Positions 27,663 through 55,034 of a stretch of 64,000 nt of DNA are shown in pieces. Position numbers and translations under genes: made by a program. The DNA comes from an uncultured Ruminococcus sp. GTDB lineage: Bacteria; Bacillota; Clostridia; CAKSNL01; HGM11501. The notes under the pieces were generated by a model. The model was given only the letters and a program-made list of their open reading frames with translations, was not told where the DNA came from and searched no databases. Within the stretch, counting starts at the first letter, position 1; each line of letters opens with the position of its first letter. The DNA lies in contig CAYXRC010000007.1 in NCBI GenBank assembly GCA_964466295.1, positions 26,786-90,785 on the forward strand. The letters run 5' to 3'.

Positions 27663-27674
27663 CGGAGGTATAAA

Positions 27675-30965: not shown

Positions 30966-31105
30966 AAATACAGGTAAAAGTCTGTCTTCTTGGTATATAT
31001 TTGGTTAATAATTAAGCCTTGACTTTAAGCATATATAATGGTATAATGTTTATCACATTAGTGCGTTAGCACATTAGCGTGATGAAGTGAACGGGAGGAA
31101 AGCCG

Positions 31106-36392: not shown

Positions 36393-37105
36393 TTATATTG
36401 CCGGCAATTGACCTTTACGGGAAAAAGGCGGTAAGGCTTTACAAGGGCGACTATGAGAAAATGACCGTTTACAGCGACTCGCCCTTAAAGGTCGCTTACG
36501 ATTTTGAAAGAAGCGGAGCCGAATACATTCATATTGTAGACCTTGAGGGTGCAAAGGACGGGACTACCCCCAATCTTTCGGTTGTTTCGGAAATTGCCGG
36601 TGCTACCAAGATGAAAATCGAGGTGGGCGGCGGAATCAGGAGCATAGAGGTCATCGAAAAATACTTAAATTCCGGAGCAGACAAAGTGATTTTGGGTACG
36701 GCCGCCGTAACCGACAGAACGTTTTTAACAGAAGCGGTAAAACGGTACGGACAGGCGGTTGCCGTGGGAGCGGACGTAAAGGACGGCTTTGTCGCCATAC
36801 GGGGCTGGAAGGAAAAAAGCGCCTTCACCCTTTCCGAGTTTATGAAGGATATAGAAAAGGTGGGGGTAAAGAACATAATCTGCACGGACATTTCAAAGGA
36901 CGGCGCAATGCAGGGAACAAATCTTTCCCTTTATAAGGAGCTTTCCGAAAAATATCAAATGGACATAACCGCCTCCGGCGGAATATCAGGAATAGAGGAC
37001 ATAGAGGCGTTAAAGAAAATGGGCATATACGGGGCGATAGTCGGAAAGGCATATTACGAGGGCGCCTTAGACCTCGCCCCTGCAATTGAGGTGGCAAGAT
37101 GTTAA
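36389..37105 (+). CDS. hisA: 1-(5-phosphoribosyl)-5-[(5-phosphoribosylamino)methylideneamino]imidazole-4-carboxamide isomerase
   Basis: The start is chosen at MIILPAIDL, preceded by AAGGAGG. It is a (beta/alpha)8 HisA. Confidence 0.9.
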   Translation: MIILPAIDLYGKKAVRLYKGDYEKMTVYSDSPLKVAYDFERSGAEYIHIVDLEGAKDGTTPNLSVVSEIAGATKMKIEVGGGIRSIEVIEKYLNSGADKVILGTAAVTDRTFLTEAVKRYGQAVAVGADVKDGFVAIRGWKEKSAFTLSEFMKDIEKVGVKNIICTDISKDGAMQGTNLSLYKELSEKYQMDITASGGISGIEDIEALKKMGIYGAIVGKAYYEGALDLAPAIEVARC

Positions 37106-37857
37106 CGAAAAGAATTATCCCCTGCCTTGACGTAAAGGATAAAAGAGTGGTAAAGGGTGTAAATTTTAAAGGTATATCGGACGTGTCGTCGCCCGTGGAT
37201 TTGGCTAAATATTATTCGGAAAGCGGCGCAGATGAGCTGGTTTTTTACGATATTACCGCATCCTTTGAAGAGAGGGAGCTTTTTACCGATATACTAAAAA
37301 AGGTTGCCGAAGAGATTTTTATCCCACTTACGGTGGGCGGCGGAATAAACAGCCTCGAGGATTTTGACAGGGTGTTAAAGTGCGGCGCCGACAAGGTAAG
37401 CGTAAACTCCGGCGCCATAAAAAATCCCGATTTAATAGGCGAGGCGGCGAAAAAATACGGAAGTCAGTGCGTGGTTATTTCCGCCGACGTAAAAAGGGTA
37501 GGCGGCGAATTTCACGTATTTTCAAAGGGCGGACGCATAGATACCGGCATGGAGGCAATATCCTGGATAAAAAGATGTACCGAAGAGGGCGCCGGCGAGG
37601 TAGTGGTAAATTCCATTGACACCGACGGCGTGAAAAAAGGCTTCGATATTGAGCTTTTGGATTTGGTGTTAAAGGCTGTCAAGGTGCCCGTTATCGCCTC
37701 CGGCGGAGCCGGCTCTGTCGAGGACTTTATAAAGCTATTTCACACTCTGCCCGATATAGACGCAGCTTTGGCGGCGTCGGTCTTTCACTTCGGAGAGATA
37801 AAAATTCCCGACCTTAAGGCAAGGCTTAAGGAAGAAAATATATTAGTGAGGTATTGA
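37099..37857 (+). CDS. hisF: imidazole glycerol phosphate synthase, cyclase subunit
   Basis: [10 protein letters not shown]...VKGVNF is the HisF signature. Confidence 0.93.
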
Positions 37858-37858
37858 T

Positions 37859-38509
37859 ATGATAGATATAAAGGAGCTTAAATTCAATAAACACGGACTT
37901 ATTCCGGCAATTGTTCAGGACGCAGTCACAAAAAGAGTGCTTACCTTGGCTTATATGAACGAGGAAAGCCTTAAAATATCCATGGAAAAGGGGCTGACCT
38001 GCTTTTACAGCCGCTCCCGTCAGGAGCTTTGGCTTAAGGGAGAAACCAGCGGAAACTATCAGCATATCGTTTCGATTACCGCAGACTGCGACAAGGACGC
38101 TCTTTTGATTACCGTTGAAAAGGACGGACCGGCATGCCATCTGGGAAACGACAGCTGCTTTGAAAATCCCCTTTGGCACAGCGATTCTAAAAATGAATTC
38201 AGCTTATATGGGCTTTACAGTCTTTTGGAGGGACGGAAAAAGGAACGCCCCGAGGGCTCTTACACCTCATATCTTTTCGACAAGGGACTTGACAAAATAT
38301 TAAAAAAGGTGGGAGAGGAAAGCACAGAGGTTATTATCGCCGGCAAGGCAGAGGACAAAAAGGAAACCGTTTATGAAATCGCCGATTTATTTTATCACGT
38401 AATGGTGCTTATGGTCGAGATGGGCATAAGCGTAAACGACGTTATGGCAGAGCTTGCCTCCCGTCATATCATTGACCACAAGGTTAAGCAGGAGAAAATG
38501 ACAAAATGA
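37859..38509 (+). CDS. hisI: bifunctional phosphoribosyl-AMP cyclohydrolase / phosphoribosyl-ATP pyrophosphatase
   Basis: The 216-aa product has a HisI domain N-terminally and a HisE (MazG-like) domain C-terminally. Confidence 0.9.
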
Positions 38510-39273
38510 CGGAGTCAAATTTCCACACGCACACTTCCTTCTGCGACGGAAAGGACACGCCGGAGGAGCTTATTAAAAAGGCTTTGGAAAAAGGGTGCAA
38601 AAAGATAGGCTTTTCAGGGCACTCCTACACGGCGTTTGACGAATCCTACTGCATGTCAAGGGAGGGCACTGACCTTTATAAAAAAGAGATTCGGGCTCTT
38701 AAAGAAAAGTACTCGGGGCAAATTGAAATCCTGCTCGGAGTGGAGCAGGACTATTTTTCTAAAGAGGAAACGTCAGATTACGACTATGTAATAGGCTCGG
38801 TGCACTATGTAAAAAAGGACGGACTGTTTTTCCCCATAGATTTGGATAAGGAAAGCTTTGTGAAAACGGTAAATGAGCATTACGGCGGCGACTTTTACGC
38901 TCTGTCGGAGGATTATTACGCTCTTTTATCTGAAATTTACGAAAAAACCAAATGCGGTATTATCGGTCATTTTGACCTTGTTACAAAATACAACGAGAAA
39001 AATAATCTTTTTGATACAAGAAATGAAAGATATATAAACGCCGCATATAAAGCCATAGACGCTCTTTGTGGTACAGGCGCGCTGATAGAAATAAATACCG
39101 GCGCCATTGCAAGGGGCTTAAGGGAGGAGCCGTATCCTGAAGAGCTTTTGAGAGAATATATGAATAAAAAGGGCTTTAAGTTTATAAAAAGCTCAGACTG
39201 TCACGATAAGGAAAAGCTTTTATTCGGATTTGAGAAGATAGGCTTCGGAAAGCTCGAAATGACGTCCCTTTGA
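38506..39273 (+). CDS. hisK: histidinol-phosphatase, PHP family
   Basis: The PHP-domain metal-binding motif ([11 protein letters not shown]...HSD) is present. It ends the his operon. Confidence 0.85.
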
Positions 39274-39934: not shown

Positions 39935-40048
39935 TTATATCACAAAAAAGTTGCAAATGCAACAATAAATGTTTTACATTATCAAAGCTGTTAGTATATA
40001 ATGAAAAAGCGATATAAAATATGCCGTATAGCAAGAGGGAGTATAAAT

Positions 40049-42232
40049 ATGAAAATTATAAAAAGAAACGGCTCTGAAGAAGAATTCGACAGACTTAAAA
40101 TAAAAAAGGCTATTGAGAAAGCGAATAAGGCGACCTCCGGCACAAGGGAGCTTACCGACAGACAGATTGACTACATATCCTTAGTTATCGAGGATTACTG
40201 CCGGGATATTGGGCGTGCCATGTCGGTTGAAGAGATACAGGAAATGGTGGAAACACACATAATTATGCAGGCGGCGCCGGAAACGGCGAAGCGGTATATA
40301 AGATACCGTTTTACCAGAAATCTTGCCCGTGTGGCGAATACCACCGATAACCAGATACTTACGCTTATCGAGTGCAATAATGAAGAGGTAAAGCAGGAAA
40401 ACTCCAATAAAAATCCCACGGTCAACAGCGTGCAGAGAGATTACATGGCAGGCGAGGTAAGCAAGGACCTTACCAAGAGAATTTTGCTTCCGGCTGACGT
40501 GGTAGAGGCTCATGAAAGCGGAATAATCCACTTCCATGACGCAGACTATTTTGCACAGCATATGCATAACTGCGACCTTGTAAACCTTGATGACATGCTC
40601 CAGAACGGAACGGTAATTTCAGGCACAATGATTGAAAAGCCTCACAGCTTTTCCACGGCGTGCAATATTGCCACTCAGATAATCGCTCAGGTAGCGTCAA
40701 ATCAGTACGGAGGACAGAGCATAAGCCTTACGCATCTTGCTCCGTTTGTCCAGATATCAAGAGAAAAGATTAAAAAGCAGGTTACAAAAGAGGTTGCGGA
40801 CGCCGGTGTTTCTCTTAGCGAGGAGAAGATAGACAAAATTGTGGAAGCAAGGCTTTTGGACGAAATAAAGCGAGGCGTTCAGACCATACAGTATCAGGTG
40901 GTGACGCTTCTTACCACTAACGGACAGGCTCCCTTTGTTACCGTATTTATGTACCTTAACGAGGCAAAGGATCCCGTTTTGAAGCACGACCTTGCGCTTA
41001 TCATCGAAGAGGTGTTAAAGCAAAGGCACGAGGGCGTTAAAAACGAAGCCGGCGTTTATGTAACACCGGCGTTCCCGAAGCTTATTTATGTGCTTGAGGA
41101 GGATAATATTACCGAGGATTCGCCCTACTGGTATTTGACCGAGCTTGCGGCGGCATGCACCGCCAAGAGAATGGTGCCCGACTATATTTCCGAAAAAATC
41201 ATGCTGGAGCTTAAAAAGGACAAAAACGGCGAAGGTCACTGCTATCCCTGCATGGGCTGCAGAAGCTTTTTAACTCCTTACGTTAACAAGGACGGCAAGC
41301 CCCAATATTACGGCAGATTCAATCAAGGCGTAGTTACGTTAAATCTTGTGGACGTTGCCTGCACGGCGTGCAGCGGAAAAAAGGACGAGGAGCGGTTTTG
41401 GAAGATATTGGACGAGAGATTGGAGCTTTGCCATAAGGCGTTAAAGTGCCGTCACGAAAGACTTGAGGGCACCTTGTCCGATGCGGCTCCCATACTCTGG
41501 CAGTACGGCGCAATCGCCCGTCTTGACAAGGGTGAGCCTATAAACGAGCTTTTACACGGCGGATATTCAACCCTGTCTTTGGGCTTCGCCGGTCTTTGGG
41601 AGTGCGTTTACGAGGTTACCGGCAAGAAGCTTACCGAAAAAGAGGGCGAAGAGTTCGGCATGAAGGTTCTTGAAAAAATGAACGAGGCGTGCAGAAAGTG
41701 GAAGGCGGAGGAAAATATAGATTACTCCATTTACGGAACGCCTCTTGAATCCACAACATATAAGTTTGCAAAGTGCCTGCAAAAGCGCTTTGGCAAAATT
41801 GAAGGCGTAACCGATAAAAACTATATTACAAATTCCTATCACGTGCACGTAACCGAGAAGATAGACGCATTTTCCAAGCTTGCTCTTGAGGCAAAATTCC
41901 AGGCGCTTTCTCCCGGCGGCGCAATAAGCTATGTGGAGGTGCCCAATATGCAGGACAACATTCCGGCGGTGCTTGAGGTTATGAAGTTTATCTATAACAA
42001 CATTATGTACGCCGAGCTTAACACGAAGTCCGATTACTGTCAGGTATGCGGCTATGACGGCGAGATACAGATTGTAGAAGAGGACGGAAAGCTCCAATGG
42101 GAATGCCCGAACTGCAAAAATCGTGACCAGTCGAAAATGAACGTGGCACGAAGGACCTGCGGATATATCGGCTCTCAGTTCTGGAATCAGGGCAGAACGC
42201 AGGAAATAAAGGAAAGGGTTCTGCACTTATAA
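40049..42232 (+). CDS. nrdD: anaerobic ribonucleoside-triphosphate reductase (class III RNR)
   Basis: The start is chosen at MKIIKRNG, preceded by GGGAG. An N-terminal ATP-cone and a C-terminal Zn-ribbon Cys cluster are present. The glycyl-radical motif (RTCGYIGSQFWN) is at the C-terminus. Confidence 0.93.
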   Translation: MKIIKRNGSEEEFDRLKIKKAIEKANKATSGTRELTDRQIDYISLVIEDYCRDIGRAMSVEEIQEMVETHIIMQAAPETAKRYIRYRFTRNLARVANTTDNQILTLIECNNEEVKQENSNKNPTVNSVQRDYMAGEVSKDLTKRILLPADVVEAHESGIIHFHDADYFAQHMHNCDLVNLDDMLQNGTVISGTMIEKPHSFSTACNIATQIIAQVASNQYGGQSISLTHLAPFVQISREKIKKQVTKEVADAGVSLSEEKIDKIVEARLLDEIKRGVQTIQYQVVTLLTTNGQAPFVTVFMYLNEAKDPVLKHDLALIIEEVLKQRHEGVKNEAGVYVTPAFPKLIYVLEEDNITEDSPYWYLTELAAACTAKRMVPDYISEKIMLELKKDKNGEGHCYPCMGCRSFLTPYVNKDGKPQYYGRFNQGVVTLNLVDVACTACSGKKDEERFWKILDERLELCHKALKCRHERLEGTLSDAAPILWQYGAIARLDKGEPINELLHGGYSTLSLGFAGLWECVYEVTGKKLTEKEGEEFGMKVLEKMNEACRKWKAEENIDYSIYGTPLESTTYKFAKCLQKRFGKIEGVTDKNYITNSYHVHVTEKIDAFSKLALEAKFQALSPGGAISYVEVPNMQDNIPAVLEVMKFIYNNIMYAELNTKSDYCQVCGYDGEIQIVEEDGKLQWECPNCKNRDQSKMNVARRTCGYIGSQFWNQGRTQEIKERVLHL

Positions 42233-42233: not shown

Positions 42234-42752
42234 ATGAATTATTCCGCTGTAAAAAACTGCGATATAGCAAACGGTTTAGGCGTGAGAGTGACGCTTTTCG
42301 TTTCGGGCTGCACTCACAGGTGCGACGGGTGCTTTAACAAGGAAACCTGGAGCTTTGACGCAGGAGAAAAATTCACGAAGGAAACCGAGAATCAGCTTTT
42401 AAAAATGCTTGAGCCCTCCTACATAAACGGGCTTACGCTTTTGGGCGGAGAGCCGATGGAAAAGGTGAATCAGGAGGGACTTATAGGATTTTTAAGGCGT
42501 GTTAAAGAGCGTTTTCCCGAAAAGAATATATGGTGCTATACAGGATACCTTTTAGAGGACCTCTTGCCCGGCGGACGAGCGCATTATAGCGTTACGGACG
42601 AGCTTTTGTCCATGATAGACGTTTTGGTGGACGGTGAATTTAAAAAAGAGCGTTACAGCATTGTATTAAAATTCAGAGGCTCGGACAATCAGAGAGTGAT
42701 AGATTTAAAAGAAACAAAAAAACAGGGAAAAATCGTTTTATTTTTAGAATGA
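42234..42752 (+). CDS. nrdG: anaerobic ribonucleotide reductase activating protein (radical SAM)
   Basis: A CxxxCxxC cluster (GCTHRCDGC) in a 172-aa product. Confidence 0.9.
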   Translation: MNYSAVKNCDIANGLGVRVTLFVSGCTHRCDGCFNKETWSFDAGEKFTKETENQLLKMLEPSYINGLTLLGGEPMEKVNQEGLIGFLRRVKERFPEKNIWCYTGYLLEDLLPGGRAHYSVTDELLSMIDVLVDGEFKKERYSIVLKFRGSDNQRVIDLKETKKQGKIVLFLE

Positions 42753-42772
42753 CTCCTTATAAAAAATTAACA

Positions 42773-42806
42773 TAAAAATCGCCCGGGATTTATCCCGGGC
42801 GGTTTT
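42773..42806 (+). terminator. rho-independent terminator after nrdG
   Basis: AAAAATCGCCCGGGA-TTTA-TCCCGGGCGGTTTTTG. Confidence 0.85.
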
Positions 42807-42845
42807 TGCCTTTAGGAGCCGAAATGTGAAAAAGCTTTTCTTTTG

Positions 42846-42875
42846 TTGACACATATATTATTTTTGTGTTATAAT
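42846..42875 (+). promoter_or_regulatory. consensus sigma-A promoter driving the large non-coding region
   Basis: TTGACA (42846-42851), an 18-nt spacer (42852-42869), and an extended -10 TGtTATAAT (42867-42875). Confidence 0.7.
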
Positions 42876-42881
42876 ACATAG

Positions 42882-43560
42882 GGAATATACGGGCGGAAAA
42901 ACCTGATCCGTAAATTCCAAAGTCCGTTTTATACGGGAAAAATAAAAAAAATTTAAGGTGGCGCAGTATTCTAGTCAGCTCCTGCCGTTTTGAAGGCGGT
43001 CGTAAAAAGCCGCTTAAGGGCACATCGATGAAGTTCCTCGTGCGTGCTTCCGATGCCAGTCGGGGGTGTGTGCCGGGAGTTAAGGTCTGAGGGCGAACCG
43101 CAATGGCATGCGGCGAATGACCCTCTCTCCGCGGAGACCTTGCTTCGTGGGAGGCGCTTTAGGCGCGTGTCCTACGGGTAAGGGTTAAACCTGTCATGCA
43201 GTACCTTTTTTCTGTGATGCTGTGGACAGCGTAGCCTGCCTTGAGTGGATATGCGGGATAGAGGACAGACAAAATTTTTTTGGCCAGAAGGATTTCGTTA
43301 TAGCTTCTTGAAAGTATATCTGCAAAAGAGGATAGGGACGGTTTCGACTGATGGGGAAAACCCCTAGACTGTATTTTCAGGCGTAAAAGGGATTGCAGTG
43401 CGGAACTTAGTGGCAATTCGGTACTGTGACAGGCGACGTCACAGGGATGGATTTAAAGGGGAACCGCTCTCATCGGCGACGGGGGAGCATCCGTTTGGGA
43501 AAGCCAACCGAACCTATGCCGCAAAATTTACTTTTTACGCCGCCACTAACTTTTTTTCGG
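42882..43560 (+). ncRNA. ole: candidate OLE (ornate large extremophilic) RNA
   Basis: About 680 nt are GC-rich relative to the flanks and have no ORF >90 codons on either strand. The region is bounded by the nrdG terminator and a strong promoter upstream. No intrinsic terminator separates it from a downstream 4-TM protein gene, which is then followed by dxs and tlyA. This is the ole-oapA-dxs-tlyA arrangement reported for OLE RNA loci. I checked for tmRNA, RNase P and SRP RNA motifs and found none. The boundaries are approximate. Confidence 0.55.
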
Positions 43561-43573
43561 AGTGTGATTATTT

Positions 43574-44185
43574 TTGGATACCACAGGACAGGGCAGACCC
43601 GACCCGTCGGAAAAAGCCCGGAGACAGCGAAGAAAATACTTACGATGGACTTTATTAAGCACGCTTTTAACCTTTTCGCTGTCATTTATTATTAATCTTT
43701 TATCGGAGGTATCCATTAACGGAGCGCCGCCTCAAGCGGCGATCTTGGTGCTTTTTTTGATAGTTTTGATAGGCGTTCTTTTCGACATGATAGGCACGGC
43801 GGTAACAGCGGCAGAGGAGGCGCCCTTTCATTCAATGGCGGCGAGGCGTGTAAAAGGTGCCGCAACCGGCATTAAGCTTATAAAAAATGCGGAAAGAGTA
43901 TCTAATATATGCAACGACGTTATAGGCGATATTTGCGGAATTGTAAGCGGATCCACTACGGCGGTGATTGTGGCACGGCTAGTAGCTTCCGATACTGCCG
44001 GAGGATTTTTTTCCGGAATCGCATTGACCGCTTTTGTGGCGGCGCTGACCGTCGGAGGCAAGGCTTTCGGTAAAAGCATAGCGATTTCAAGCAGTAACAA
44101 TATTGTGTTTACCGTTGCCAAGATACTTTCTGTTTTTGAAAAGGACTCAAAAAATGGAAAAAAGAATAAGAAAAATACTAAATGA
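43574..44185 (+). CDS. oapA: candidate OLE-associated protein A (small 4-TM membrane protein)
   Basis: About 200 aa with four predicted TM helices (AAILVLFLIVLIGVLF; ICGIVSGSTTAVIVARLVA; FFSGIALTAFVAALTV; IAISSSNNIVFTVAKILSV). It sits immediately 3' of the ncRNA and overlaps the dxs start. The start codon is uncertain (TTG at 43574, or an internal TTG/GTG/ATG). Confidence 0.5.
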   Translation: MDTTGQGRPDPSEKARRQRRKYLRWTLLSTLLTFSLSFIINLLSEVSINGAPPQAAILVLFLIVLIGVLFDMIGTAVTAAEEAPFHSMAARRVKGAATGIKLIKNAERVSNICNDVIGDICGIVSGSTTAVIVARLVASDTAGGFFSGIALTAFVAALTVGGKAFGKSIAISSSNNIVFTVAKILSVFEKDSKNGKKNKKNTK

Positions 44186-46010
44186 AAATATAAATCATGA
44201 AACGCTTGAAAGGCTTAATTTCCAGGAGCTTTCCTGCCTTTGCGAGGAAATAAGGGAATTTTTGATTGAAAGCGTTTCCAAAACAGGAGGGCATCTTGCG
44301 TCTAATCTGGGAGTGGTCGAGCTCACGGTTATGCTGCACAGATGCTTTGATTTTAGTGCGGACGACCGTATAATATTTGATGTAGGGCATCAGAGCTATA
44401 TCCATAAAATTCTTACGGGTCGCATGAAATATTTTGACAGCTTAAGAATGACTGACGGGCTTTCGGGCTTTCCGAGGCATGAGGAGAATAGTCAGGATCT
44501 TTTTGATACAGGACACTCGGGAACATCCCTTTCCTTGGCGGACGGTATAGCGTCGGCTAAAATGATAAAGGGCGAAAAGGGCTTTTCCGTCGCTCTTATC
44601 GGCGACGGCGCAATGACCGGAGGGCTTTGCTACGAAGCGTTGAACAACATAGGCAACACGAAAAAGAATATAATAATAATACTTAACGACAACGGAATGT
44701 CCATTTCAAAAAATGTGGGCGCTCTTTCAAATATTTTATTGAGGGTCAGGACGAGCAAGGGCTATTTCCGTGCGAAAAAGGATTTAAAAGGAGCGCTTAA
44801 GGCACATCCCGAAGCAGAACGGCATATAAGGAGGCTTAAGGACAGGCTTAAGCTTATGATGGTGCCGGGTACCTTTGCGGAAAGCTTCGGAATTAAGTAT
44901 TTCGGGCCCGTCGACGGTCACGATTTAAAACAGCTCGGAACTTATATCGAACGGGCTAAGACGGTTACAGGTCCCGTTTTAATACATGTTAAAACCGTAA
45001 AGGGCAAGGGCTACGGATATGCGGAGGCGCAGCCGTCAAGATTTCACGGCGTGTCTGCATTCGAGGTAGATAAAGGCACGACTCACAGCCTTAAGGAGGA
45101 CTATTCCGAAGCCGTGGGAATGGAGCTTTCTTTACTTGCCTGTAAAAATAGCAATATGGCGGTAATATGCCCGGCTATGACGAAGGGGTGCGGGCTTTCC
45201 GGCTTTGCAGAAGCTTATCCGGAAAGATTTTTTGACTGCGGAATTGCGGAAGAGCATGCCGTTACCTTTGCGGCAGGTCTTGCAAGAGAGGGTATGATAC
45301 CCGTCGTGTGCACCTATTCCACATTTATGCAGCGTGCCTATGACCAGATTTTGCACGATGCGGCGATAAACGGTCTGCACATTGTATTCTGCCTTGACCG
45401 TGCAGGAAAGCCCGGCGCTGACGGGAAAACACATCAGGGCATATACGACCTTTCATATCTTGGAAGCATACCGAATGTTGCTGTCCTGTCGCCGTCGTCT
45501 TTTTCAGAGCTTTCGGCAATGTTAAAATATGCGGTGGAGGAGCATAAGGGACCTATAGCCATAAGATACCCGAAGGGCAGGGAGGAGCTTTCCGGCAGAG
45601 CGGGATTTAAATTCGGAAAGGCGAGGGTTGTATCTGCCGGAAAAGACATTACTCTGTGTGCAGAGGGAATTATGCTTAAAACCGCTCTTGATGCGGCAGG
45701 GAAGGCGGAAAACGCCGGATTTAAGGTGGAGGTTATTGAGCTTTCCACTATTTACCCCACAGATTTTGAAACAATAGAAAAATCAGTTCAAAAGACCGGA
45801 AGGCTTATTACCCTTGAGGCCAACGCCTTAAGGGGAGGCATGGGCGAGGAAATTTTCGCCCGTCTTAAGTGTCCGGGAAAAGCAATATCCTTTCCCGACG
45901 TCTTTATCGAGCACGGAAAAACAAAAACGCTTATGGAAAGGTACGGATTGGATTCTGATTCCGTAGCCGAGGATATATTAAAGCTTTGCGGAGGGCAAAA
46001 TGAGGCTTGA
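44154..46010 (+). CDS. dxs: 1-deoxy-D-xylulose-5-phosphate synthase
   Basis: The start is chosen at MEKRIRKIL, preceded by AAGGA, by alignment of ...LERLNFQELSCLCEEIREFL to the Dxs N-terminus. The ThDP motif (GDGAMTGG...NDN) and the transketolase-like C-terminus are present. Confidence 0.93.
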   Translation: MEKRIRKILNENINHETLERLNFQELSCLCEEIREFLIESVSKTGGHLASNLGVVELTVMLHRCFDFSADDRIIFDVGHQSYIHKILTGRMKYFDSLRMTDGLSGFPRHEENSQDLFDTGHSGTSLSLADGIASAKMIKGEKGFSVALIGDGAMTGGLCYEALNNIGNTKKNIIIILNDNGMSISKNVGALSNILLRVRTSKGYFRAKKDLKGALKAHPEAERHIRRLKDRLKLMMVPGTFAESFGIKYFGPVDGHDLKQLGTYIERAKTVTGPVLIHVKTVKGKGYGYAEAQPSRFHGVSAFEVDKGTTHSLKEDYSEAVGMELSLLACKNSNMAVICPAMTKGCGLSGFAEAYPERFFDCGIAEEHAVTFAAGLAREGMIPVVCTYSTFMQRAYDQILHDAAINGLHIVFCLDRAGKPGADGKTHQGIYDLSYLGSIPNVAVLSPSSFSELSAMLKYAVEEHKGPIAIRYPKGREELSGRAGFKFGKARVVSAGKDITLCAEGIMLKTALDAAGKAENAGFKVEVIELSTIYPTDFETIEKSVQKTGRLITLEANALRGGMGEEIFARLKCPGKAISFPDVFIEHGKTKTLMERYGLDSDSVAEDILKLCGGQNEA

Positions 46011-46770
46011 CGTTTATCTTGTTAAAAATTCTCTTGCCACCGGACGGGATAGAGCCAAGGAGATGATTTTATCCGGCAAGGTAAAGGTTTCCGGCACTGT
46101 TTGCTTAAAGCCAAGCCTTGAAACGGACGGAAAGACCGTTGAGGTTTTAAGGGATGAGTGCTATGTGGGGCGGGGCGCTTACAAGATAAAAAAGGCGGCG
46201 GAGGAATTTTCTCTTAAAATTTCTGAAAAAACATGCCTTGACGCTGGGGCAAGCACGGGCGGATTTACCGAATATATGCTAAATTGCGGTGCAAAAAAGG
46301 TATATGCGGTAGACGTAGGTCACGGACAGCTTGCCGAAAAGCTAAGGTGTGATGAGCGTGTTGTCAATATGGAGGGTACGGATATAAGAAGCTTACACCT
46401 TGACGAAAAATGCTCGTTTTTTGCCTGCGACGTTTCTTTTATTTCGTTAAAGCAGGTGCTTTTTCCTCTTTATTCTCTGACAGACTCTTTTGCAGAGGGA
46501 GTGTGTCTTATAAAGCCTCAGTTTGAGGTCGGCAGAGCCGCCGTGGGGAAAAGGGGCGTTGTTAAGGACAAAAAGGCGCAGAGAAAAGCCGCCGAAAGTG
46601 TTATGGAATATGCCCGGTCGGTGGGGTTTTATATATCGGGGCTGACATTTTCACCCGTAACCGGTCAAAACGGCAATATAGAGTTTTTACTGTATCTTAC
46701 AAAGGACGACCGAAAGCTTGTCCCGGATACAGAAAAAGTGGTAAATAAAGCATGGGAGGCTCTTTTATGA
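46000..46770 (+). CDS. tlyA: TlyA-family rRNA 2'-O-methyltransferase (hemolysin A family)
   Basis: An S4 domain N-terminally (RLDVYLVKNSLATGRDRAKEMILSGKVKV) plus an FtsJ-like MTase (LDAGASTGGFT). Confidence 0.9.
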   Translation: MRLDVYLVKNSLATGRDRAKEMILSGKVKVSGTVCLKPSLETDGKTVEVLRDECYVGRGAYKIKKAAEEFSLKISEKTCLDAGASTGGFTEYMLNCGAKKVYAVDVGHGQLAEKLRCDERVVNMEGTDIRSLHLDEKCSFFACDVSFISLKQVLFPLYSLTDSFAEGVCLIKPQFEVGRAAVGKRGVVKDKKAQRKAAESVMEYARSVGFYISGLTFSPVTGQNGNIEFLLYLTKDDRKLVPDTEKVVNKAWEALL

Positions 46771-47411
46771 ATATTGAAAAAACATTGAAAAATCTTAAAA
46801 AAAATAACATGACGCCCTATGTGGTAAAGGACAAAAACGAGGCCGCAAGGAAGGTGTTATCTCTTCTTTCGGAAAATGAAACCGTTGCGGTGGGCGGCTC
46901 AATGACGCTTTTCGAATGCGGAATTATCGAGCTTTTAAGAAGCGGTAAGTACAACTTTTTAGACCGTTATAAAGAGGGTATTTCACGTGAGGAGGTTATG
47001 AAGCTTTACAGGGAAAGCTTTTTCGCCGACACCTATATATCAAGCTCTAACGCCGTTACCGAAAACGGGGAGCTTTATAACGTGGACGGAAATTCAAACA
47101 GAGTGGCCGCATTGCTTTTCGGTCCTAAGTCCGTTATAATCGTGGTCGGAAAGCAGAAAATTGTCGAAAATCTTGACGAGGCGGTGCGCCGTGTTAAAAA
47201 AGTCGCCGCACCGAAAAACTCAAAAAGGCTCTCGTGCAGTACATACTGTGAGAAAAAGGGAGTCTGTGTATCGGAAGCGTATTCAGCCTCCGATATGACG
47301 GACGGCTGCGCTTCAGATGACAGAATATGCGCAAACTATACGGTCATGGCGCAGCAGAGAATAAAAGACAGAATAAAGGTAATCATAATAGACGAGGAAG
47401 CCGGATATTGA
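46767..47411 (+). CDS. LUD (lactate-utilisation, LutC-like) domain protein
   Basis: The start is chosen at MNIEKTL, 7 nt after GGGAGG. It carries the LUD/DUF162 fold with a C-terminal Cys cluster (CSTYCEKKGVC). Confidence 0.65.
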   Translation: MNIEKTLKNLKKNNMTPYVVKDKNEAARKVLSLLSENETVAVGGSMTLFECGIIELLRSGKYNFLDRYKEGISREEVMKLYRESFFADTYISSSNAVTENGELYNVDGNSNRVAALLFGPKSVIIVVGKQKIVENLDEAVRRVKKVAAPKNSKRLSCSTYCEKKGVCVSEAYSASDMTDGCASDDRICANYTVMAQQRIKDRIKVIIIDEEAGY

Positions 47412-47426
47412 TTGGGAGGGATACAT

Positions 47427-48125
47427 ATGGACAGAAAGAAAATTCTTGTTGTAGACGACGAAAAAAATATCGGGGACATTTTAAAGATAAACCTTGAAAA
47501 GGAGGGCTATGGGGTTTCGGTTGCCATGGACGGCGAGGAGGGCTTGGCTCTTGCGCTGTCGGAAAATCCGGATCTTGTGCTTCTTGACGTTATGCTTCCG
47601 AAAATGGACGGCTTTGAGGTCTGCAAAAAAATAAGGCAAAAAAGCGAAGTGCCCATTGTTATGCTTACGGCAAGAAGTGAGGAAATAGATAAGATTTTAG
47701 GACTTGAGCTGGGAGCCGACGACTATGTAACAAAGCCCTTTTCCGTAAGAGAGCTTCTTGCCAGGGTAAAGGCGAATTTAAGGCGCACCGTCCCGGCAAC
47801 CGAGGCGTTGCAAACGGGCGAAGGCGACATAAAGATAGGCGAGATTACCATAAATACCGAGCGCTATGAGTTAAGAAAGAACGGCAAGCCCATAGAGCTT
47901 ACCTTAAGAGAGTTTGAGCTTGTGAAATTCCTTGCCGAAACGCCCAACAGAATATGCTCGAGAGAAACTATTTTAAGAAAAGTGTGGGGCTATGAATATG
48001 TGGGCGACGACCGCACGGTTGACGTTACCATAAGCAGGCTGAGAGAAAAAATCGAGGATAATCCGAGCGAGCCGAAATATATAATGACCAGGCGGGGTAT
48101 CGGCTATTATTTTTATAAGGAATAG
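47427..48125 (+). CDS. walR: OmpR-family response regulator, WalR/YycF-like
   Basis: The start is chosen at MDRKKILVVDDE, preceded by GGGAGGG. The receiver and winged-helix domains are nearly collinear with B. subtilis YycF (…IVMLTARSEEIDKILGLELGADDYVTKPFSVRELLARVKANLRR). Confidence 0.85.
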   Translation: MDRKKILVVDDEKNIGDILKINLEKEGYGVSVAMDGEEGLALALSENPDLVLLDVMLPKMDGFEVCKKIRQKSEVPIVMLTARSEEIDKILGLELGADDYVTKPFSVRELLARVKANLRRTVPATEALQTGEGDIKIGEITINTERYELRKNGKPIELTLREFELVKFLAETPNRICSRETILRKVWGYEYVGDDRTVDVTISRLREKIEDNPSEPKYIMTRRGIGYYFYKE

Positions 48126-48130
48126 CTTGT

Positions 48131-49876
48131 ATGTTTAGGAGTATTCAGTGGAGAATACTGACCCTTTTTATAATACTGACGGTAAGCGTCATGTCATTTG
48201 TGGGCGTATTTTCCGCATGGGGAATAAAAAAATACTATAACATGCAGTTTACCGAGGATATGCAGATAAACACCTTTACCGAAGCTATGACGGCAGAGCT
48301 TTCAAGAGCGGCCGCAAGCTCTCTTGACGACCTTAAAAAGGTGCTCTCGGCGTTCAGCGTCAGAATGGGAATAGACTCATACAGGGACGCATATGTGCTT
48401 TCGGGAGAGGACGCAAAATGCCTTTACTCTCTTTCCGGGCGAAATACTGGCGAGGATTTTGAAATTACAGAAAACATCATAGCCGCACTTTCCGGAAAAA
48501 TCGGAAACGAAACAAACGAAATCGGAGAGTTTATGGATTTTGCCGTGCCGGTAAAATCGGGCGGAAAAGTAATGTATATAGTATATGTCAGGGACACCAA
48601 GGTTGAGATGTACGAGGTAATGAAGAGCATCCTTAAAAATATTTTCCTTGCACTTTTAATCGGGTTGGTGCTGTCGGTATTTTTGGGCTATGTCTTTTCT
48701 AAATCGCTAATTGCTCCCTTGGTAAGGCTTAAAAATTCCGCTTCCCATATGGCAAAGGGGAATTTCAGCGATAAAATAAAGGTGTCGGGCGACGACGAAA
48801 TAGGAAGCCTTACCGAAGCCTTTAATCACATGGCCGAGGAGCTTAACTTTACCATGAGCGAAATGGCGGCGGAAAAAAACAAGATTGAAACGGTTCTTTT
48901 ATATATGACAGACGGAGTTGTCGCCTTTAATTCGGACGGAAAGCTTATCCATATAAATCCGGCGGCAATGAAGCTTTTGGGTGTAACCGAGGAATCGGTT
49001 ACCGGCTTTGACGAATTTTTTGCCATGCTTGGTACCGATATTACTATCGGACAGTTTCTGTATCTTGCCAAGGAGCCGGCAGAGAAAAGCATAGACTACG
49101 ACGGCAGACATTTTATGGTTTATCTTGCGCCTCTTGAAAGCGAGGACAAGGTAATAGGCGTCGTTTCGGTATTTCAGGACTATACCAAGCAGCAAAGGCT
49201 TGACAATGCAAGGCGTGAGTTTGTGGCAAACGTATCTCATGAATTAAGGACTCCCATAACCGTCATAAAAAGCTATACGGAAACGCTTATGGATTATCCG
49301 GGGCATGATGAAACGGAAAATAATTTCCTTGCGGTCATAGACGGGGAAACCGACCGCATGACACGCCTTATCAGCGATCTTTTATCGTTGTCCCAGCTTG
49401 ATAACAACATTGAAATGAAAAAAGAGCCCTTTGACATTAAGGAGCTTTTAGAGCTTGCATGTCATAGAATGAATGTAGAGGCTAAAAAGCACGGACAGAA
49501 GATTGTTTTTAAAGCAGAGGAGCTCATGCCTAAGGTAAGCGGCGACAGAAACAGGCTTGAACAGGTGATTGTCAACATTATAGGAAACGCAGTAAAATAC
49601 ACCCAGGACGGCGGCGAGATTTGGGTTAGCTTAAATGCGGATAAGGGTTTTGCATATATTAAGGTAAGGGATAACGGAATCGGTATCCCCAAGGAGGATA
49701 TTCCGCATCTTTTTGAAAGATTTTACCGTGTGGATAAGGCAAGAAGCCGCGCCAAAGGTGGCACAGGCTTAGGGCTTGCTATTGCAAAGGAAATTATAGA
49801 CGCTCACGGAGGAAATATCAATATTGAGAGCGAAGAGGGAGAGGGCACCGAGGTTACGGTTGCACTGCCGCTTTAA
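48131..49876 (+). CDS. walK: sensor histidine kinase, WalK/YycG-like
   Basis: Two TM helices flank a ~150-aa extracytoplasmic domain. HAMP, PAS and HisKA (VANVSHELRTPIT) domains and a HATPase_c domain (GGTGLGLAI) follow. Confidence 0.85.
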   Translation: MFRSIQWRILTLFIILTVSVMSFVGVFSAWGIKKYYNMQFTEDMQINTFTEAMTAELSRAAASSLDDLKKVLSAFSVRMGIDSYRDAYVLSGEDAKCLYSLSGRNTGEDFEITENIIAALSGKIGNETNEIGEFMDFAVPVKSGGKVMYIVYVRDTKVEMYEVMKSILKNIFLALLIGLVLSVFLGYVFSKSLIAPLVRLKNSASHMAKGNFSDKIKVSGDDEIGSLTEAFNHMAEELNFTMSEMAAEKNKIETVLLYMTDGVVAFNSDGKLIHINPAAMKLLGVTEESVTGFDEFFAMLGTDITIGQFLYLAKEPAEKSIDYDGRHFMVYLAPLESEDKVIGVVSVFQDYTKQQRLDNARREFVANVSHELRTPITVIKSYTETLMDYPGHDETENNFLAVIDGETDRMTRLISDLLSLSQLDNNIEMKKEPFDIKELLELACHRMNVEAKKHGQKIVFKAEELMPKVSGDRNRLEQVIVNIIGNAVKYTQDGGEIWVSLNADKGFAYIKVRDNGIGIPKEDIPHLFERFYRVDKARSRAKGGTGLGLAIAKEIIDAHGGNINIESEEGEGTEVTVALPL

Positions 49877-49998
49877 TAAAGTTTCTCTCTTGTTAAGTAA
49901 AAATAACTCCGCCGTAACAGTCCTGTAACAATAACGTGGTATAATAAGCGTATAATAAAAATGAAAATCCGAAATTCTTAAAAAAGGAGGTGCCGATT

Positions 49999-50457
49999 AT
50001 GAAAAAAATAACAGCGATGGTTTTAGCATTTGTTATGATGATTTCTATGTCGGCAGTCTGCCTTGCGTCAGGTGTTACTTATAAGGATGTCGGAAACGCC
50101 GCAAATATTCTGGTTATAAAAAAGCCCGAAAATGCTCAGTCCCAGAGCAATAAAAGCGTTTATCCCGTATCCGGAGTCGCCGATCCGTACTGCACGGTAA
50201 CCGTGCTTACATATAATTCGTCGGACGGTCTTTATTATCCCGCTACGGATTCCGAGGGGAAGACCCTTCAGACTACGGTAGGCGCAAGCGGTCTGTTTTG
50301 CTTTAATGTTCAGCTTAAAACCGGCGATAACAATTTGGCTGTTCAGGCAGTTACAAGCGACAGAGCAAAGGTACAGAGAGTATTTTTCAAAATTAATCTG
50401 GTGTCGCAGGGCTGGTTCAGCAGTATAAAAAGTCTTATTAACGGTTGGAACCGCTGA
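49999..50457 (+). CDS. hypothetical secreted protein inserted between walK and yycH
   Basis: The start is chosen at MKKITAMV, 6 nt after AAGGAGGTG. A signal peptide precedes a beta-rich ~130-aa domain. Confidence 0.55.
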   Translation: MKKITAMVLAFVMMISMSAVCLASGVTYKDVGNAANILVIKKPENAQSQSNKSVYPVSGVADPYCTVTVLTYNSSDGLYYPATDSEGKTLQTTVGASGLFCFNVQLKTGDNNLAVQAVTSDRAKVQRVFFKINLVSQGWFSSIKSLINGWNR

Positions 50458-50476
50458 CGGACAGGAGAGAAAATAA

Positions 50477-51925
50477 GTGAAGGAACGAATTAAGAGTTTT
50501 GTATTGATACTGTTGGTTTTGGTCAGTATAGGTCTTACTTCGGTCACATGGATGGATGAAAGGCTATGGCCGGAAGGCTATAGCCTTTTTGCTAATGTAA
50601 AAAGCTGGCCGATAATCAGAAATTTTTTCGATAATTATTATTCTGAGCCCTTGGAAAACTTAAAAAAGGCGAGAAAAATAGTAATCGCCGACGGAAACGG
50701 TTCAAGCTCGGTTTTTTATAACAGCGACAAGGCTTTTGAAAACGTCTACACCGATATAGGGAATCTGGTATCTGGCTTCCTTGACGGCAGTATAGAAATA
50801 ACGGAGGAGTCGCAGCTTTCCAAAGAGGATTTAAGGAAGATGTTAAACGAGCAGGTCATGTACGCCTATGTCAGCTATCCGGTCGCAACGACTCCGAAGC
50901 TTTTCAGCCGTCTTATGGGCGTTTCCGATTCTGAGAGTCTTAACAGAATTGACGCCGTAAGGGATTTTTTCATACTCCCGACAGGAGGTGACAGCGTTGA
51001 ATTTCTTGCGGTTGATTATGAGGATAAAAATGCCGTCCGCTATGAGCTTTTCTACAAAGGGACGCAGGATTTAATAAACTCCTTCACAAATTATGTGGCA
51101 GGTGTGGACCCGGATCATAACTGTACCTTAGCCCTTGAGATGAACTTAGATACCGTAAATGAGGACGAGGCGGTAAAAATGAAAACGGTGCTGGATTCAT
51201 TTTTGGTATTGGACTCGGCATCCACGGCAAAAAATCAAAGGCAGAAGATTTCCGGCATAAATCCCTTGGCAAAAAGCTCCGAAGCGGCAGCTCGTGCGAT
51301 TGGATGCTTCGGCTATAACCCCAAATCTATACACCGCTATGTGGACAGCGACGGCACCGAGATATACCTTGAAAACGATTCCATGCTTAAGATTTATAAT
51401 AACGGAGTTATCGAATACGAGGCGACGGGCTCCTCCCACGGAATAAAAATCTCCGGCGACGGGTCCTTGTACGAATCCCTTAACAGCGCGGTAAAATTTG
51501 CAGGAGAGGTATACTCCGAAGCCTCCGGTGCCGACTTTAAGGTTAACGTTTCCGGCGACCTTTTATACGCTTCCTCGGGAGAGATGAATTTTTCGTTCGA
51601 TTATTATTTTTCGGGCATACCTGTTACGACAGAGGTTGAGGTCGGCGGAAATAAGCTTGACCATGCGATAGAAATAACGGTAGAGGACGGATATATTACC
51701 AAGGTTAAAATGCTTTTGAGGGAATATGAGGAAACGGACGATTATTTGGATACCTTAACTATCTATGAAGCAATAGATAAAATCGCTCTGCTCTATAATG
51801 AAAAAGAAGAGCCGGTGAGAATTTATGATATTTTCTTATCTTACGGAGAATACGGGAGCGAGGGAGTTATCTCCCCGGTATGGACGGGATATGCCGACGG
51901 AGAACGTGTTATTATAAAAAATTAA
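50477..51925 (+). CDS. yycH: YycH-like WalK-regulatory protein
   Basis: A GTG start after GGAGAG, an N-terminal TM helix and a large extracytoplasmic domain (482 aa). The position immediately after walRK matches Bacillus yycH. Confidence 0.65.
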   Translation: MKERIKSFVLILLVLVSIGLTSVTWMDERLWPEGYSLFANVKSWPIIRNFFDNYYSEPLENLKKARKIVIADGNGSSSVFYNSDKAFENVYTDIGNLVSGFLDGSIEITEESQLSKEDLRKMLNEQVMYAYVSYPVATTPKLFSRLMGVSDSESLNRIDAVRDFFILPTGGDSVEFLAVDYEDKNAVRYELFYKGTQDLINSFTNYVAGVDPDHNCTLALEMNLDTVNEDEAVKMKTVLDSFLVLDSASTAKNQRQKISGINPLAKSSEAAARAIGCFGYNPKSIHRYVDSDGTEIYLENDSMLKIYNNGVIEYEATGSSHGIKISGDGSLYESLNSAVKFAGEVYSEASGADFKVNVSGDLLYASSGEMNFSFDYYFSGIPVTTEVEVGGNKLDHAIEITVEDGYITKVKMLLREYEETDDYLDTLTIYEAIDKIALLYNEKEEPVRIYDIFLSYGEYGSEGVISPVWTGYADGERVIIKN

Positions 51926-51961
51926 AAGACTCTTTAATAAGGAAAGGAGCTTTAAGAAGAA

Positions 51962-52726: not shown

Positions 52727-52769
52727 TATTTACAAAAACGGATTTTTGTGATATTATAATAAAAGATAT

Positions 52770-52846
52770 GTGCCCGTAGCTCAGCCGGATAGAGCAATGG
52801 CCTCCGACGCCATGTGTCGTGCGTTCGAATCGCATCGGGCATACCA
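52770..52846 (+). tRNA. tRNA-Arg (anticodon CCG)
   Basis: GTGCCCG-TA-GCTC-AGCCGGATA-GAGC-A-ATGGC-CTCCGAC-GCCAT-GTGTC-GTGCG-TTCGAAT-CGCAT-CGGGCAT-A-CCA. A TATAAT box lies upstream at 52753-52758. Confidence 0.8.
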
Positions 52847-52850
52847 CGTC

Positions 52851-52886
52851 GGAGCAAGCTTTATATCGCTTGCTCTGATTTTTTTA
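52851..52886 (+). terminator. rho-independent terminator after tRNA-Arg
   Basis: GGAGCAAGC-TTTATATC-GCTTGCTCTGATTTTTTT. Confidence 0.8.
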
Positions 52887-52995
52887 ATTAAAACAATGCT
52901 TAAAACGTCTTAAAATATCTTTTGCCGATACGGATATTTTAAGACTGAATTTTTAAATGGCAGATAAGAATAACAATGCCAAAGGGTGTGAAGAT

Positions 52996-55022: not shown

Positions 55023-55034
55023 GGGGGAATTAAA

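Follow-up and report, generated by a model that had tools for sequence, protein, structure and literature searches.

The RNAs termed OLE (for ornate, large, extremophilic) are structured bacterial RNAs of ~600 nt, in which near-invariant nucleotides are arranged in large blocks and account for about 25% of the positions. In the Bacillus-type arrangement, as found in Halalkalibacterium halodurans, the RNA gene lies inside a long operon, within the cluster asp23(yqhY)-nusB-folD-xseA-xseB-ispA-ole-oapA-dxs-tlyA. The product of the adjacent gene, OapA, carries a DxxxD motif whose two aspartates are strictly conserved and are those mutated in the PM1 allele. Two further partners, the KOW-motif protein OapB (YbzG) and the L7Ae-family k-turn binder OapC (YbxF), are encoded by genes that are normally unlinked to ole. 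OapC has its site in an alternative k-turn at P5, and OapA binds palindromes near P2 and P4a. As a class, OLE RNAs are characterized as abundant and stable transcripts that are found at the membrane within a ribonucleoprotein.

The OLE system of H. halodurans, including the particle, its partners and its roles under stress, has been described previously, as has the resemblance of the OapA transmembrane domain to Mg2+ transporters of the CNNM/MpfA type (PMC12265935, PMC7936274, PMC9723947, PMC11332333). The DxxxD motif is distinctive for OapA (PMC11332333, PMC7936274), and the top structural match published for the H. halodurans protein is MtCorB (PMC11332333). Two variant forms of the RNA have also been reported: variant 1 (TANB77), in which P7-P9 are shortened and the OapB site in P13 is often missing, and variant 2 (RF39), which is without P7 and P8 (Fernando & Breaker 2024, PMC11332333).

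Here we analysed a 64-kb stretch of DNA (hereafter the window) from an uncultured Clostridia bacterium. We are highly confident that positions 42942-43562 hold a full-length OLE RNA gene and positions 43574-44185 the gene for its membrane partner, OapA (Table 1). The locus adds a clear but unremarkable case to a well-known class. It shares with H. halodurans the full-length RNA type (RF01071) with a GNRA tetraloop and bulge in P13, an oapA gene directly 3’ on the same strand whose product has DxxxD and four transmembrane (TM) helices, the dxs and tlyA genes that follow, and the lack of a terminator dividing ole from oapA. The two differ upstream of the RNA (Crp(-)-nrdD-nrdG and a terminator in the window, xseAB-ispA in H. 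halodurans), in the position of OLE (heading a unit behind its own consensus promoter, rather than inside a long operon), past tlyA (a LUD gene and a WalRK/YycH-like module, where Bacillus-type loci have other genes), in the TTG start codon of the window oapA and in the host. With variants 1 and 2, which occur in uncultured Bacillota that are anaerobic or live in the gut, the window RNA has the core nucleotides and the oapA partner in common; unlike them, it spans the whole 616-position model. The order OLE-oapA-dxs-tlyA is also that of the loci sampled from metagenome-assembled genomes (MAGs) of Oscillospiraceae and other Clostridia (L003-L081).

Table 1. Features of the ole-oapA locus and the downstream gene string (coordinates of the window).
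Feature	Position	Strand	Evidence
Intrinsic terminator hairpin, bidirectional, closing nrdDG	42780..42801		9-pair stem, 8 G-C; T-runs on both strands
Sigma-70-type promoter, TTGACA-18-(TG)TATAAT	42846..42875	+	12/12 consensus and extended -10 TG
5’ leader, about 60-75 nt, two predicted hairpins	42876..42941	+	Fold of 42882-42960: -21.4 kcal/mol, z = -3.46
OLE RNA gene, full-length type	42942..43562	+	RF01071 474.1 bits; 145/156 pairs canonical
oapA ribosome-binding site, GGAG	43559..43562	+	Last four nt of the OLE model match
oapA, 203 aa, TTG start	43574..44185	+	DxxxD, four hydrophobic segments, CNNM 27.0 bits, OLE synteny
dxs (1-deoxy-D-xylulose-5-phosphate synthase)	44154..46010	+	TIGR00204 659.8 bits
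tlyA (rRNA cytidine-2’-O-methyltransferase), overlaps dxs	46000..46770	+	TIGR00478 229.8 bits
LUD-domain protein gene, overlaps tlyA	46752..47411	+	Pfam LUD_dom E = 1e-54
WalR/YycF-like response regulator	47412..48125	+	NF040534 335.6 bits, cut-off 340
WalK-like histidine kinase	48131..49876	+	NF033092 467.6 bits, cut-off 725
155-aa protein gene	49990..50457	+	Same-strand string
Divergent YycH-like protein gene, 482 aa	50477..51925	+	Full-length alignment with P0460, E = 1e-36
254-aa protein gene, N-terminal TM helix	51962..52726	+	Same-strand string
tRNA-Arg(CCG)	52770..52846	+	ARAGORN
First strong plus-strand terminator after the OLE promoter	52848..52879	+	12-pair stem, then T-run

Results

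The intergenic region holds a full-length OLE RNA gene

The stop codon of nrdG (42752) is separated from the next real ORF by a non-coding gap of 821 nt, of which 621 nt are matched by the Rfam OLE model RF01071 (plus strand; E = 5e-136; gathering threshold 50 bits). The match runs untruncated from model position 1 to 616 (of 616) and has no sizeable deletions against the model. What the initial annotation had put forward as a candidate OLE gene is thereby an unambiguous one, with no rival family near threshold. The span given there, 42846-44185, locates the locus correctly but not the RNA, since it runs from the promoter to the stop codon of oapA. The GC richness noted for the region was also evident, with 50.9% for the OLE RNA as compared with a mean of 30.3% (s.d. 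7%) in the window’s 18 remaining intergenic regions and of 44.9% in coding DNA.

Both sequence and structure place the RNA in the OLE family. Seven other fetched loci were confirmed as OLE by the same model at 387-543 bits, the range seen for OLE RNAs from cultured species. In an alignment of 69 OLE RNAs, the window RNA among them, about 150 columns are invariant and roughly 95 more are conserved at ≥90%, forming near-invariant blocks such as GCAGUAUUCUAGUC, GGGCACAUCGAUGAAG, CCUAGACUGU and ACCUAUGCCGCAAAAUUUAC. In the window, 93% of the 156 consensus pairs of the Rfam structure are canonical, and the 11 that are not all fall within variable stems. Across the 20 helices of the 69 RNAs, 86.3% of the cells are paired, as compared with 40-47% in slid controls, and double compensatory changes occur at 126 of the 156 pairs; the covariation score was 0.507 (0.11-0.13 in controls), and none of 500 shuffles attained the observed values.

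The P13 hairpin of the window reads CUGUGAC-A-G[GCGA]C-GUCACAG, with a GCGA tetraloop of the GNRA type and a 1-nt bulge. Two P13 pairs that are non-canonical in the Rfam register suggested an altered OapB site; this was rejected after P13 was folded in the 69 OLE RNAs, where the distance from the GNRA loop down to the bulge is 1 bp in 13 cases, 2 bp in 14 and 3 bp in 13, making the window hairpin an ordinary one within the natural range. Conserved nucleotides flanking the expected P5 k-turn and the palindromes near P2 and P4a align to the model. Because the whole model is matched and the P13 loop and bulge are kept, we assign the RNA to the full-length type. The host is likewise of the kind in which OLE RNAs occur, the anaerobic or extremophilic Bacillota: named homologs of its GyrA and OapA proteins belong to “Clostridia bacterium” or Oscillospiraceae, and the window carries markers of an anaerobic lifestyle or of sporulation, namely nrdDG, a member of the YabP family (by Pfam) and, by eye, spoIID, yqfD-like and ylbJ-like genes.

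The downstream gene encodes OapA

The TTG start codon of oapA lies 12 nt past the end of the OLE RNA, whose last nucleotides provide the ribosome-binding site, and this context, GGAG(T/C)GTG...TTTT-TTG, is kept in 7/7 clade members, so that both the ribosome-binding site and the TTG start are conserved. The encoded protein has hydrophobic segments at about residues 25-46, 52-80, 113-137 and 143-166, in agreement with the four-TM protein of ~200 aa that had been proposed as OapA. Its DxxxD motif reads D115-V-I-G-D119, and in a comparison with 44 homologs (alignment A1) D115 and D119 were invariant.

The sole Pfam signal in the protein is CNNM (PF01595), the model on which OapA proteins rank next after MpfA, with a score near the cut-off of 28.4 bits; falling just under the gathering score, OapA is a distant relative of CNNM and not a member. 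An AlphaFold model of the protein is all-helical (pLDDT 88.7), and a Foldseek search with it placed the MtCorB structures 7M1T and 7M1U at PDB ranks 1-4 (probability 0.99-1.00, query-normalised TM-score 0.38-0.51), the same top match as in H. halodurans; by sequence, no PDB entry matched at E up to 1. The TM-domain fold of MtCorB, one of the MpfA/CorB/CNNM Mg2+ transporters, is thus, among solved structures, the nearest to the OapA model. In contrast to these transporters, OapA possesses DxxxD and an additional, fourth TM helix, and is without a CBS pair or a CorC/HlyC domain.

Among about 5,600 homologs the name “OapA” appears in no source, with public records giving “hypothetical protein”, and we found no NCBIfam model for OapA; membership was therefore set by synteny, motif and fold. 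On every count examined, sequence, synteny and predicted fold support 43574-44185 as OapA. The uninformative label and the missing NCBIfam model leave OapA-bearing loci under-annotated.

Upstream neighbors vary, while the OLE-oapA-dxs-tlyA order is retained

In a survey of genome loci, 75 of 80 had OLE directly upstream of an oapA homolog and on its strand, dxs followed oapA in 76 of 81 and tlyA followed dxs in 73 of 81. The upstream context varied widely: ispA was absent upstream in 36 of 66 OLE loci, and many loci from MAGs of Oscillospiraceae and other Clostridia have NUDIX and DinB-type polymerase genes, or divergent genes, at this position. One locus (L005) was discarded as a reference because it was too frameshifted.

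We also compared the window with seven fetched relatives of the same clade. In four of these nrdG lies upstream of OLE, in one with the exact order of the window, and nrdDG was found next to OLE only among such close clade members, which were fetched by exact-protein look-up; among the 80 GTDB loci, none has nrdDG within 10 kb, and a single one (L002) has the block of LUD gene, response regulator and histidine kinase. Being common to several related species, nrdDG upstream of OLE is a clade arrangement rather than a one-off, and both flanks, nrdDG and WalRK-like, are peculiar to the clade of the window. The locus had initially been described as rearranged. Its departure from the canonical order, with nrdDG present and ispA missing, is real, but it is not unusual, since ispA is missing upstream in about half of the OLE loci sampled and related species share nrdDG.

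Such a departure could in principle mark a decaying or non-functional OLE relic, left by a rearrangement in which the canonical ispA cluster upstream was lost, and several features are in line with this: no homolog of ispA, xseA, xseB, nusB, folD or asp23 was found anywhere in the 64-kb window, the upstream flank differs even among close relatives, and the window RNA has the 11 non-canonical pairs described above. We nevertheless consider a relic highly improbable, given that the match is full-length and that its 474 bits fall inside the range of the OLE RNAs of cultured species. In addition, relatives with 69-86% nucleotide identity retain the RNA, and the pairing is upheld by compensatory changes across the class. 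Conservation extends to the promoter and the ribosome-binding site, to oapA, which is intact and has its invariant residues, and to the genes downstream. The absence of ispA upstream, as the survey indicates, is in itself common.

OLE is predicted to head its own transcription unit

The OLE unit is bounded upstream by the nrdG terminator, present as initially reported in the form of a G-C-rich hairpin with T-runs. It is followed by a promoter that was the top site of our promoter scan, is located 67 nt upstream of the OLE match and fully merits the description “textbook” that it had been given (Table 1). This promoter is conserved in the closest relative (L082), with which homology starts at 42838. 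Five other clade relatives have a strong promoter of their own that abuts OLE, with some 7-10 nt between the -10 box and the OLE 5’ end, and the leader that separates promoter from RNA was seen only in the window and in L082.

This leader, which folds better than shuffled sequence and is matched by no RNA family, might speak for a structured RNA of another kind that happens to adjoin isoprenoid genes, be it a riboswitch, a leader, an intron of group I or II or a large unclassified RNA; the OLE call was exposed to this reading as long as it rested on context, size and composition alone. However, OLE is the sole family that reaches gathering thresholds in the region, and a permissive Rfam scan of 42740-43700 gave next-best scores of 15-29 bits against cut-offs of 44-100, all of them on the nrdG terminator hairpin. 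The OLE model explains 621 of the 821 intergenic nt, and the leader is missing in 5/7 clade relatives. The model match refutes a different RNA for the main body of the region, and for the region as a whole we give this reading practically no credence. Just as negligible is the prospect that the region encodes small proteins instead of an RNA: eight ORFs of 40-89 aa on both strands overlap 42790-43695, but each of them contains stops in 33-64 of the 68 related OLE sequences compared, or changes length out of frame in 22-53. None of the eight is conserved, and conservation tracks base-pairing rather than codons, in agreement with the initial finding of no credible ORF.

A scan of the plus strand detected no convincing terminator between OLE and oapA, in accord with the initial annotation, and none from the OLE promoter up to 52848. 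Two terminator-like sites, one a conserved OLE hairpin (43352-43366) and the other inside oapA, were both judged unconvincing. The predicted position of OLE at the head of its own transcription unit is a minor new detail.

The gene string extends into a WalRK/YycH-like module

The stop codon of oapA (44183-44185) overlaps dxs, which begins with ATG at 44154, by 32 nt, and tlyA follows, both as first noted. A LUD-domain gene comes after tlyA in 7/7 clade relatives and is a clade-specific member of the string; the response regulator and histidine kinase beyond it are conserved in all clade relatives. These two proteins score below the YycF and WalK equivalog cut-offs of WalRK (YycFG), respectively (Table 1). 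The 482-aa protein aligns with an intermediate homolog, P0460, that passes the Pfam YycH model (31.5 bits against 27), but no direct profile match was found for the 155-aa, 482-aa or 254-aa proteins, including matches to YycH/YycI for the latter two. Because of the sub-cut-off scores, and because the YycH link runs only through an intermediate homolog, we call the module WalRK/YycH-like and not a member of WalRK. A 113-nt gap at 49877-49989, together with several promoter-like sites, could split the string.

Discussion

The arrangement of the locus suggests how it may work. Transcription would start near 42882 and yield the leader, OLE and then a polycistronic message over at least oapA-dxs-tlyA, which may run on via the LUD gene and the WalRK-like pair into the YycH-like gene and end at the 52848-52879 terminator; spacing and missing terminators are what point to co-transcription past tlyA. 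The stable OLE RNA would be released from the 5’ end of the transcript, or retained there. By homology to H. halodurans, OapA dimers would bind the OLE RNA (2:1) and hold it at the cell membrane, and OapB (via the P13 GNRA hairpin) and OapC (via a k-turn) would complete the ribonucleoprotein. By the same analogy, the particle would help the cell to tolerate alcohol, cold and excess Mg2+ and to manage on poor carbon sources.

Within the 64-kb window, neither OapB nor OapC was matched by 18 concatenated small ORFs (≤160 aa) compared with PDB sequences that include the OapB and YbxF structures, and none of ten window proteins scanned with Pfam had a KOW or L7Ae match. The small-ORF and Pfam searches yielded only MazE/MazF, AcpS, cupin, YajC, YabP and DUF3792.

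In the window and its seven relatives, ole-oapA heads a same-strand string of ~10 kb that has no strong internal terminator and runs through dxs, tlyA and the LUD gene to the WalRK/YycH-like module. If this string is co-transcribed, production of the OLE particle might be coupled to the main envelope-sensing system, a speculative idea that we think is probably wrong. It would be in keeping with a recent proposal in which OLE RNA crosses the membrane and its domain 2 contacts the cell wall (PMC12265935). The literature that we searched makes no mention of WalRK beside ole.

The locus leaves knowledge of the OLE class unchanged. OLE RNAs are among the largest and best-conserved bacterial RNAs of unknown biochemical function, and each well-delimited example therefore adds comparative data. 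Together with its relatives, the locus is a clean case of OLE behind a consensus promoter of its own. In five relatives the promoter is positioned such that the start would fall within a few nt of the conserved 5’ GGUGGCGCAG, which helps to delimit the native 5’ terminus of the RNA. The weak TTG start of oapA is likewise conserved, again a minor new detail. Finally, its lineage-specific neighbors, nrdDG upstream and the WalRK/YycH-like module downstream, extend the list of gene associations from which the function of OLE can be guessed.

The OLE RNA and its conserved structure

The intergenic region upstream of oapA encodes an OLE RNA of the full-length type. The Rfam model RF01071 (gathering score 50) matched 42942-43562 on the forward strand with 474.1 bits (E = 5e-136), untruncated and covering model positions 1-616 of 616, confirming the RNA class that the initial annotation had proposed. 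A permissive scan of 42740-43700 found no other Rfam family of note: with cut-offs of 44-100 bits, the next-best matches reached 15-29, and these sub-threshold matches all fell on the nrdG terminator. The region was also, as first described, GC-rich and poor in ORFs. Its 621-nt core has 50.9% GC, as compared with a mean of 30.3% (sd 7%) in the other 18 intergenic regions and 44.9% in coding DNA. Eight ORFs of 40-89 aa overlap the gap, none of them conserved among 68 related sequences, where each is mostly interrupted by stop codons or changed in length out of frame; the first real ORF starts at 43574.

The structure of this RNA is under purifying selection. When the Rfam consensus structure was projected onto the window, 145 of the 156 mappable pairs were canonical. 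In an alignment of the window RNA with 68 OLE RNAs from other genomes, standard pairs occupied 86.3% of cells, as compared with 40-47% when the 3' partners were slid by 1-3 columns, and the covariation score was 0.507 versus 0.11-0.13 in the slid versions. Changes on both sides were seen in 126/156 pairs, and none of 500 shuffles reached the observed pairing and covariation values. The window RNA is neither variant 1 nor variant 2, the shortened OLE RNAs described by Fernando & Breaker (PMC11332333). A displaced bulge in P13 was considered and rejected: the distance from loop to bulge is 1, 2 or 3 bp in 13, 14 and 13 of the 69 sequences, respectively, and its position in the window is unremarkable because it varies naturally. 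An extra hairpin of ~25-30 nt, GAAGCGCG...CGCGCTTGC, is present in a subset of Oscillospiraceae-type OLE RNAs (loci L045, L021, L055, L077 and others) and absent from the window RNA; it occupies columns 147-174 of the OLE alignment A3, directly 3' of a long hairpin at columns 99-146.

The OapA homolog

The same-strand ORF starting 12 nt past the end of the OLE match is unnamed in every source and lacks an NCBIfam model; some 5,600 OapA-family homologs likewise carry no functional name and are publicly annotated as "hypothetical protein". We assessed it against features reported for OapA (PMC11332333, PMC7936274, PMC12265935). As anticipated in the initial annotation, the protein has four hydrophobic segments. 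Both termini are basic, and it carries the distinctive DxxxD motif of OapA (PMC11332333, PMC7936274), here D115-VIG-D119, both aspartates of which are invariant in an alignment of 44 diverse homologs. The Pfam CNNM profile scored 27.0 bits, slightly below its cut-off of 28.4, in line with the published placing of OapA as the class that comes next after MpfA. The four best PDB matches of its AlphaFold model (pLDDT 88.7) were to the archaeal CNNM protein MtCorB (7M1T, 7M1U; probability ~1.0, 139-151 aligned columns), the same top structural match as published for H. halodurans OapA (PMC11332333).

Synteny agrees with this assignment. Among 80 genome loci fetched using the 44-homolog alignment, 75 carried an OLE RNA directly upstream of the homolog on the same strand (nhmmer, with the window RNA as query); four of the other five had too little upstream DNA, and the fifth (L063) had ~400 nt without a match. 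Seven re-scanned fetched loci, five of them from the 80-locus set, scored 387-543 bits with the Rfam OLE model. In one locus from a bin labelled Bacteroidaceae (L071:6205-9078), the OLE RNA (386.7 bits) and the OapA homolog lie ~1.8 kb apart and are not adjacent. Binning error or transfer is noted in the literature for OLE matches outside Bacillota, and the label of this bin probably has the same origin.

The TTG start of oapA, ~11 nt after a GGAG that makes up the final 4 nt of the OLE match (43559-43576), is kept in 7/7 clade members (the window, L082, L083, L085, L086, L087 and L089). Because the start is TTG, some public gene calls (173-175 aa) lack the N-terminal basic segment.

Features of the OLE locus and promoter sites in clade relatives (L-numbers, fetched genome loci)
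Feature	Position	Strand	Remarks
nrdD	40001-42232		equivalog-level match
nrdG	42234-42752		equivalog-level match
nrdG terminator hairpin	42780-42801		9 pairs, 8 G-C; T-runs on both sides
OLE promoter	42846-42875	+	TTGACA-18-TATAAT, extended -10 TG; 12/12 match, best in region
Leader	42876-42941
OLE RNA	42942-43562	+	RF01071
oapA	43574-44185	+	203 aa, TTG start
dxs	ATG 44154	+	overlaps oapA by 32 nt
tlyA	46000-46770	+	overlaps dxs
LUD-domain protein	46752-47411	+
155-aa protein	after WalK-like kinase	+
Terminator after tRNA-Arg(CCG)	52848-52879	+	end of string; first strong terminator
Promoter, L083	4700-4790
Promoter, L085	7540-7625
Promoter, L086	6460-6548
Promoter, L087	9290-9378
Promoter, L089	8505-8590

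Promoter position relative to the OLE RNA

The consensus promoter noted initially at the start of the region matches at all 12 positions. Strong promoters (TTTACx or TTGACT, a 17-nt spacer, and TGnTATAAT or TATAAT) were found in five clade relatives (L083, L085, L086, L087 and L089), with the -10 box ending ~7-10 nt upstream of the conserved GGUGGCGCAG at the OLE 5' terminus, such that the OLE 5' end is probably the transcription start in these five. In contrast, the equally strong promoter of the window and L082 lies ~75 nt further upstream of OLE, and for the leader in between, folding predicts two hairpins (-21.4 kcal/mol, z = -3.46). No convincing forward-strand terminator follows the OLE promoter until the one just past tRNA-Arg(CCG), in line with the early observation that none precedes oapA.

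Gene neighborhood

Upstream, the window locus is non-canonical, as the initial annotation had judged, yet a variable upstream context is normal for OLE. The Bacillus-type string asp23-nusB-(folD)-xseA-xseB-ispA, verified with Pfam, was found in 30/66 loci with enough upstream sequence and assorted other genes in 36/66; homologs of these six genes are absent from the 64-kb window, and nrdDG occurred within 10 kb in 0/80 loci of the broad sample. Clade members were retrieved by exact-protein look-up. Of these, L086 (66% OapA identity) shows precisely the order Crp(-)-nrdD-nrdG-OLE-oapA, and in L083, L085 and L089 nrdG is followed by a variable insert of 4-6 genes and then OLE. This insert (L083:351-4631, L085:863-7488, L089:4103-8440), absent in the window and L086, has as its first gene one for a PG_binding_1-domain protein, and its last gene, of ~350 aa, is divergently oriented; the genes of the L083 insert, the only one compared, have no homologs in the window. 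In L087 the upstream block is a different one, made up of genes found around 23-26.5 kb of the window. The closest relative, L082, is 86% identical at the nucleotide level and carries an SLH-domain gene upstream of OLE; homology between L082 and the window starts at 42838, immediately upstream of the -35 box. The conserved block begins with the promoter and extends across OLE and beyond, with breakpoints recurring at its 5' edge.

Downstream, the overlapping dxs and then tlyA were correctly read at the outset; dxs follows oapA in 76/81 loci and tlyA in 73/81. The LUD gene is followed by a YycF/WalR-like regulator (335.6 bits versus a cut-off of 340) and a WalK-like kinase (467.6 versus 725). 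The string also encodes a 482-aa divergent YycH-like protein, which can be aligned end to end (E = 1e-36) with a homolog passing Pfam YycH, and a protein of 254 aa that has a TM helix at its N-terminus and matched no profile. The portion from LUD to the terminator (46752-52879) is kept in 7/7 clade relatives, but in only 1/80 broader OLE loci. Neither WalRK nor nrdDG is mentioned beside ole in the OLE literature searched; the contiguity of ole with this putative WalRK/YycH-like module is read from gene order.

The window carries anaerobic nrdDG and sporulation genes, and its host is an uncultured Clostridia bacterium; the named GyrA homologs, at 74-76% identity, come from "Clostridia bacterium" or Oscillospiraceae. 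The end of gyrB (3' part) and then gyrA (833 aa) stand at the start of the window (80-3176). The window also contains a MazE/EndoAI-like antitoxin and MazF/EndoA toxin (E = 1e-48 to B. subtilis YdcE/EndoA); the holo-ACP synthase gene acpS precedes this pair, an arrangement shared with the Bacillus acpS...ndoA region (9143-9773, 7165-7518). We recognized by eye argCJBD, a complete his operon (hisZGDCBHAF-IE plus a HisJ-type phosphatase, the only member of the arg/his/pro set confirmed by profile search) and proBAC (26736-39273; 52957-55844).

Discussion

Sequence analysis establishes which families the RNA and the protein belong to, along with predicted signals for their co-expression. By homology to H. 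halodurans, OapA dimers would anchor the OLE RNA at the membrane, OapB would bind P13 and OapC a P5 k-turn, and the particle may help the cell withstand alcohol, cold, Mg2+ and poor carbon sources. A dimer of the RNA that spans the bilayer is suggested by recent cryo-EM models (PMC12265935, PMC12286853). Neither oapB nor oapC was found in the window, where 18 small ORFs of up to 160 aa were compared with PDB sequences and ten proteins were scanned with Pfam, as expected for genes normally unlinked to ole. As a new member of a well-known RNA class, readily picked up by the standard model, the locus brings no surprise and no new kind of element. What it adds is modest: a comparison across the clade of where the promoter sits relative to the 5' end of OLE, the TTG start kept in oapA, the clade-shared nrdDG flank and the contiguity with a WalRK/YycH-like module.
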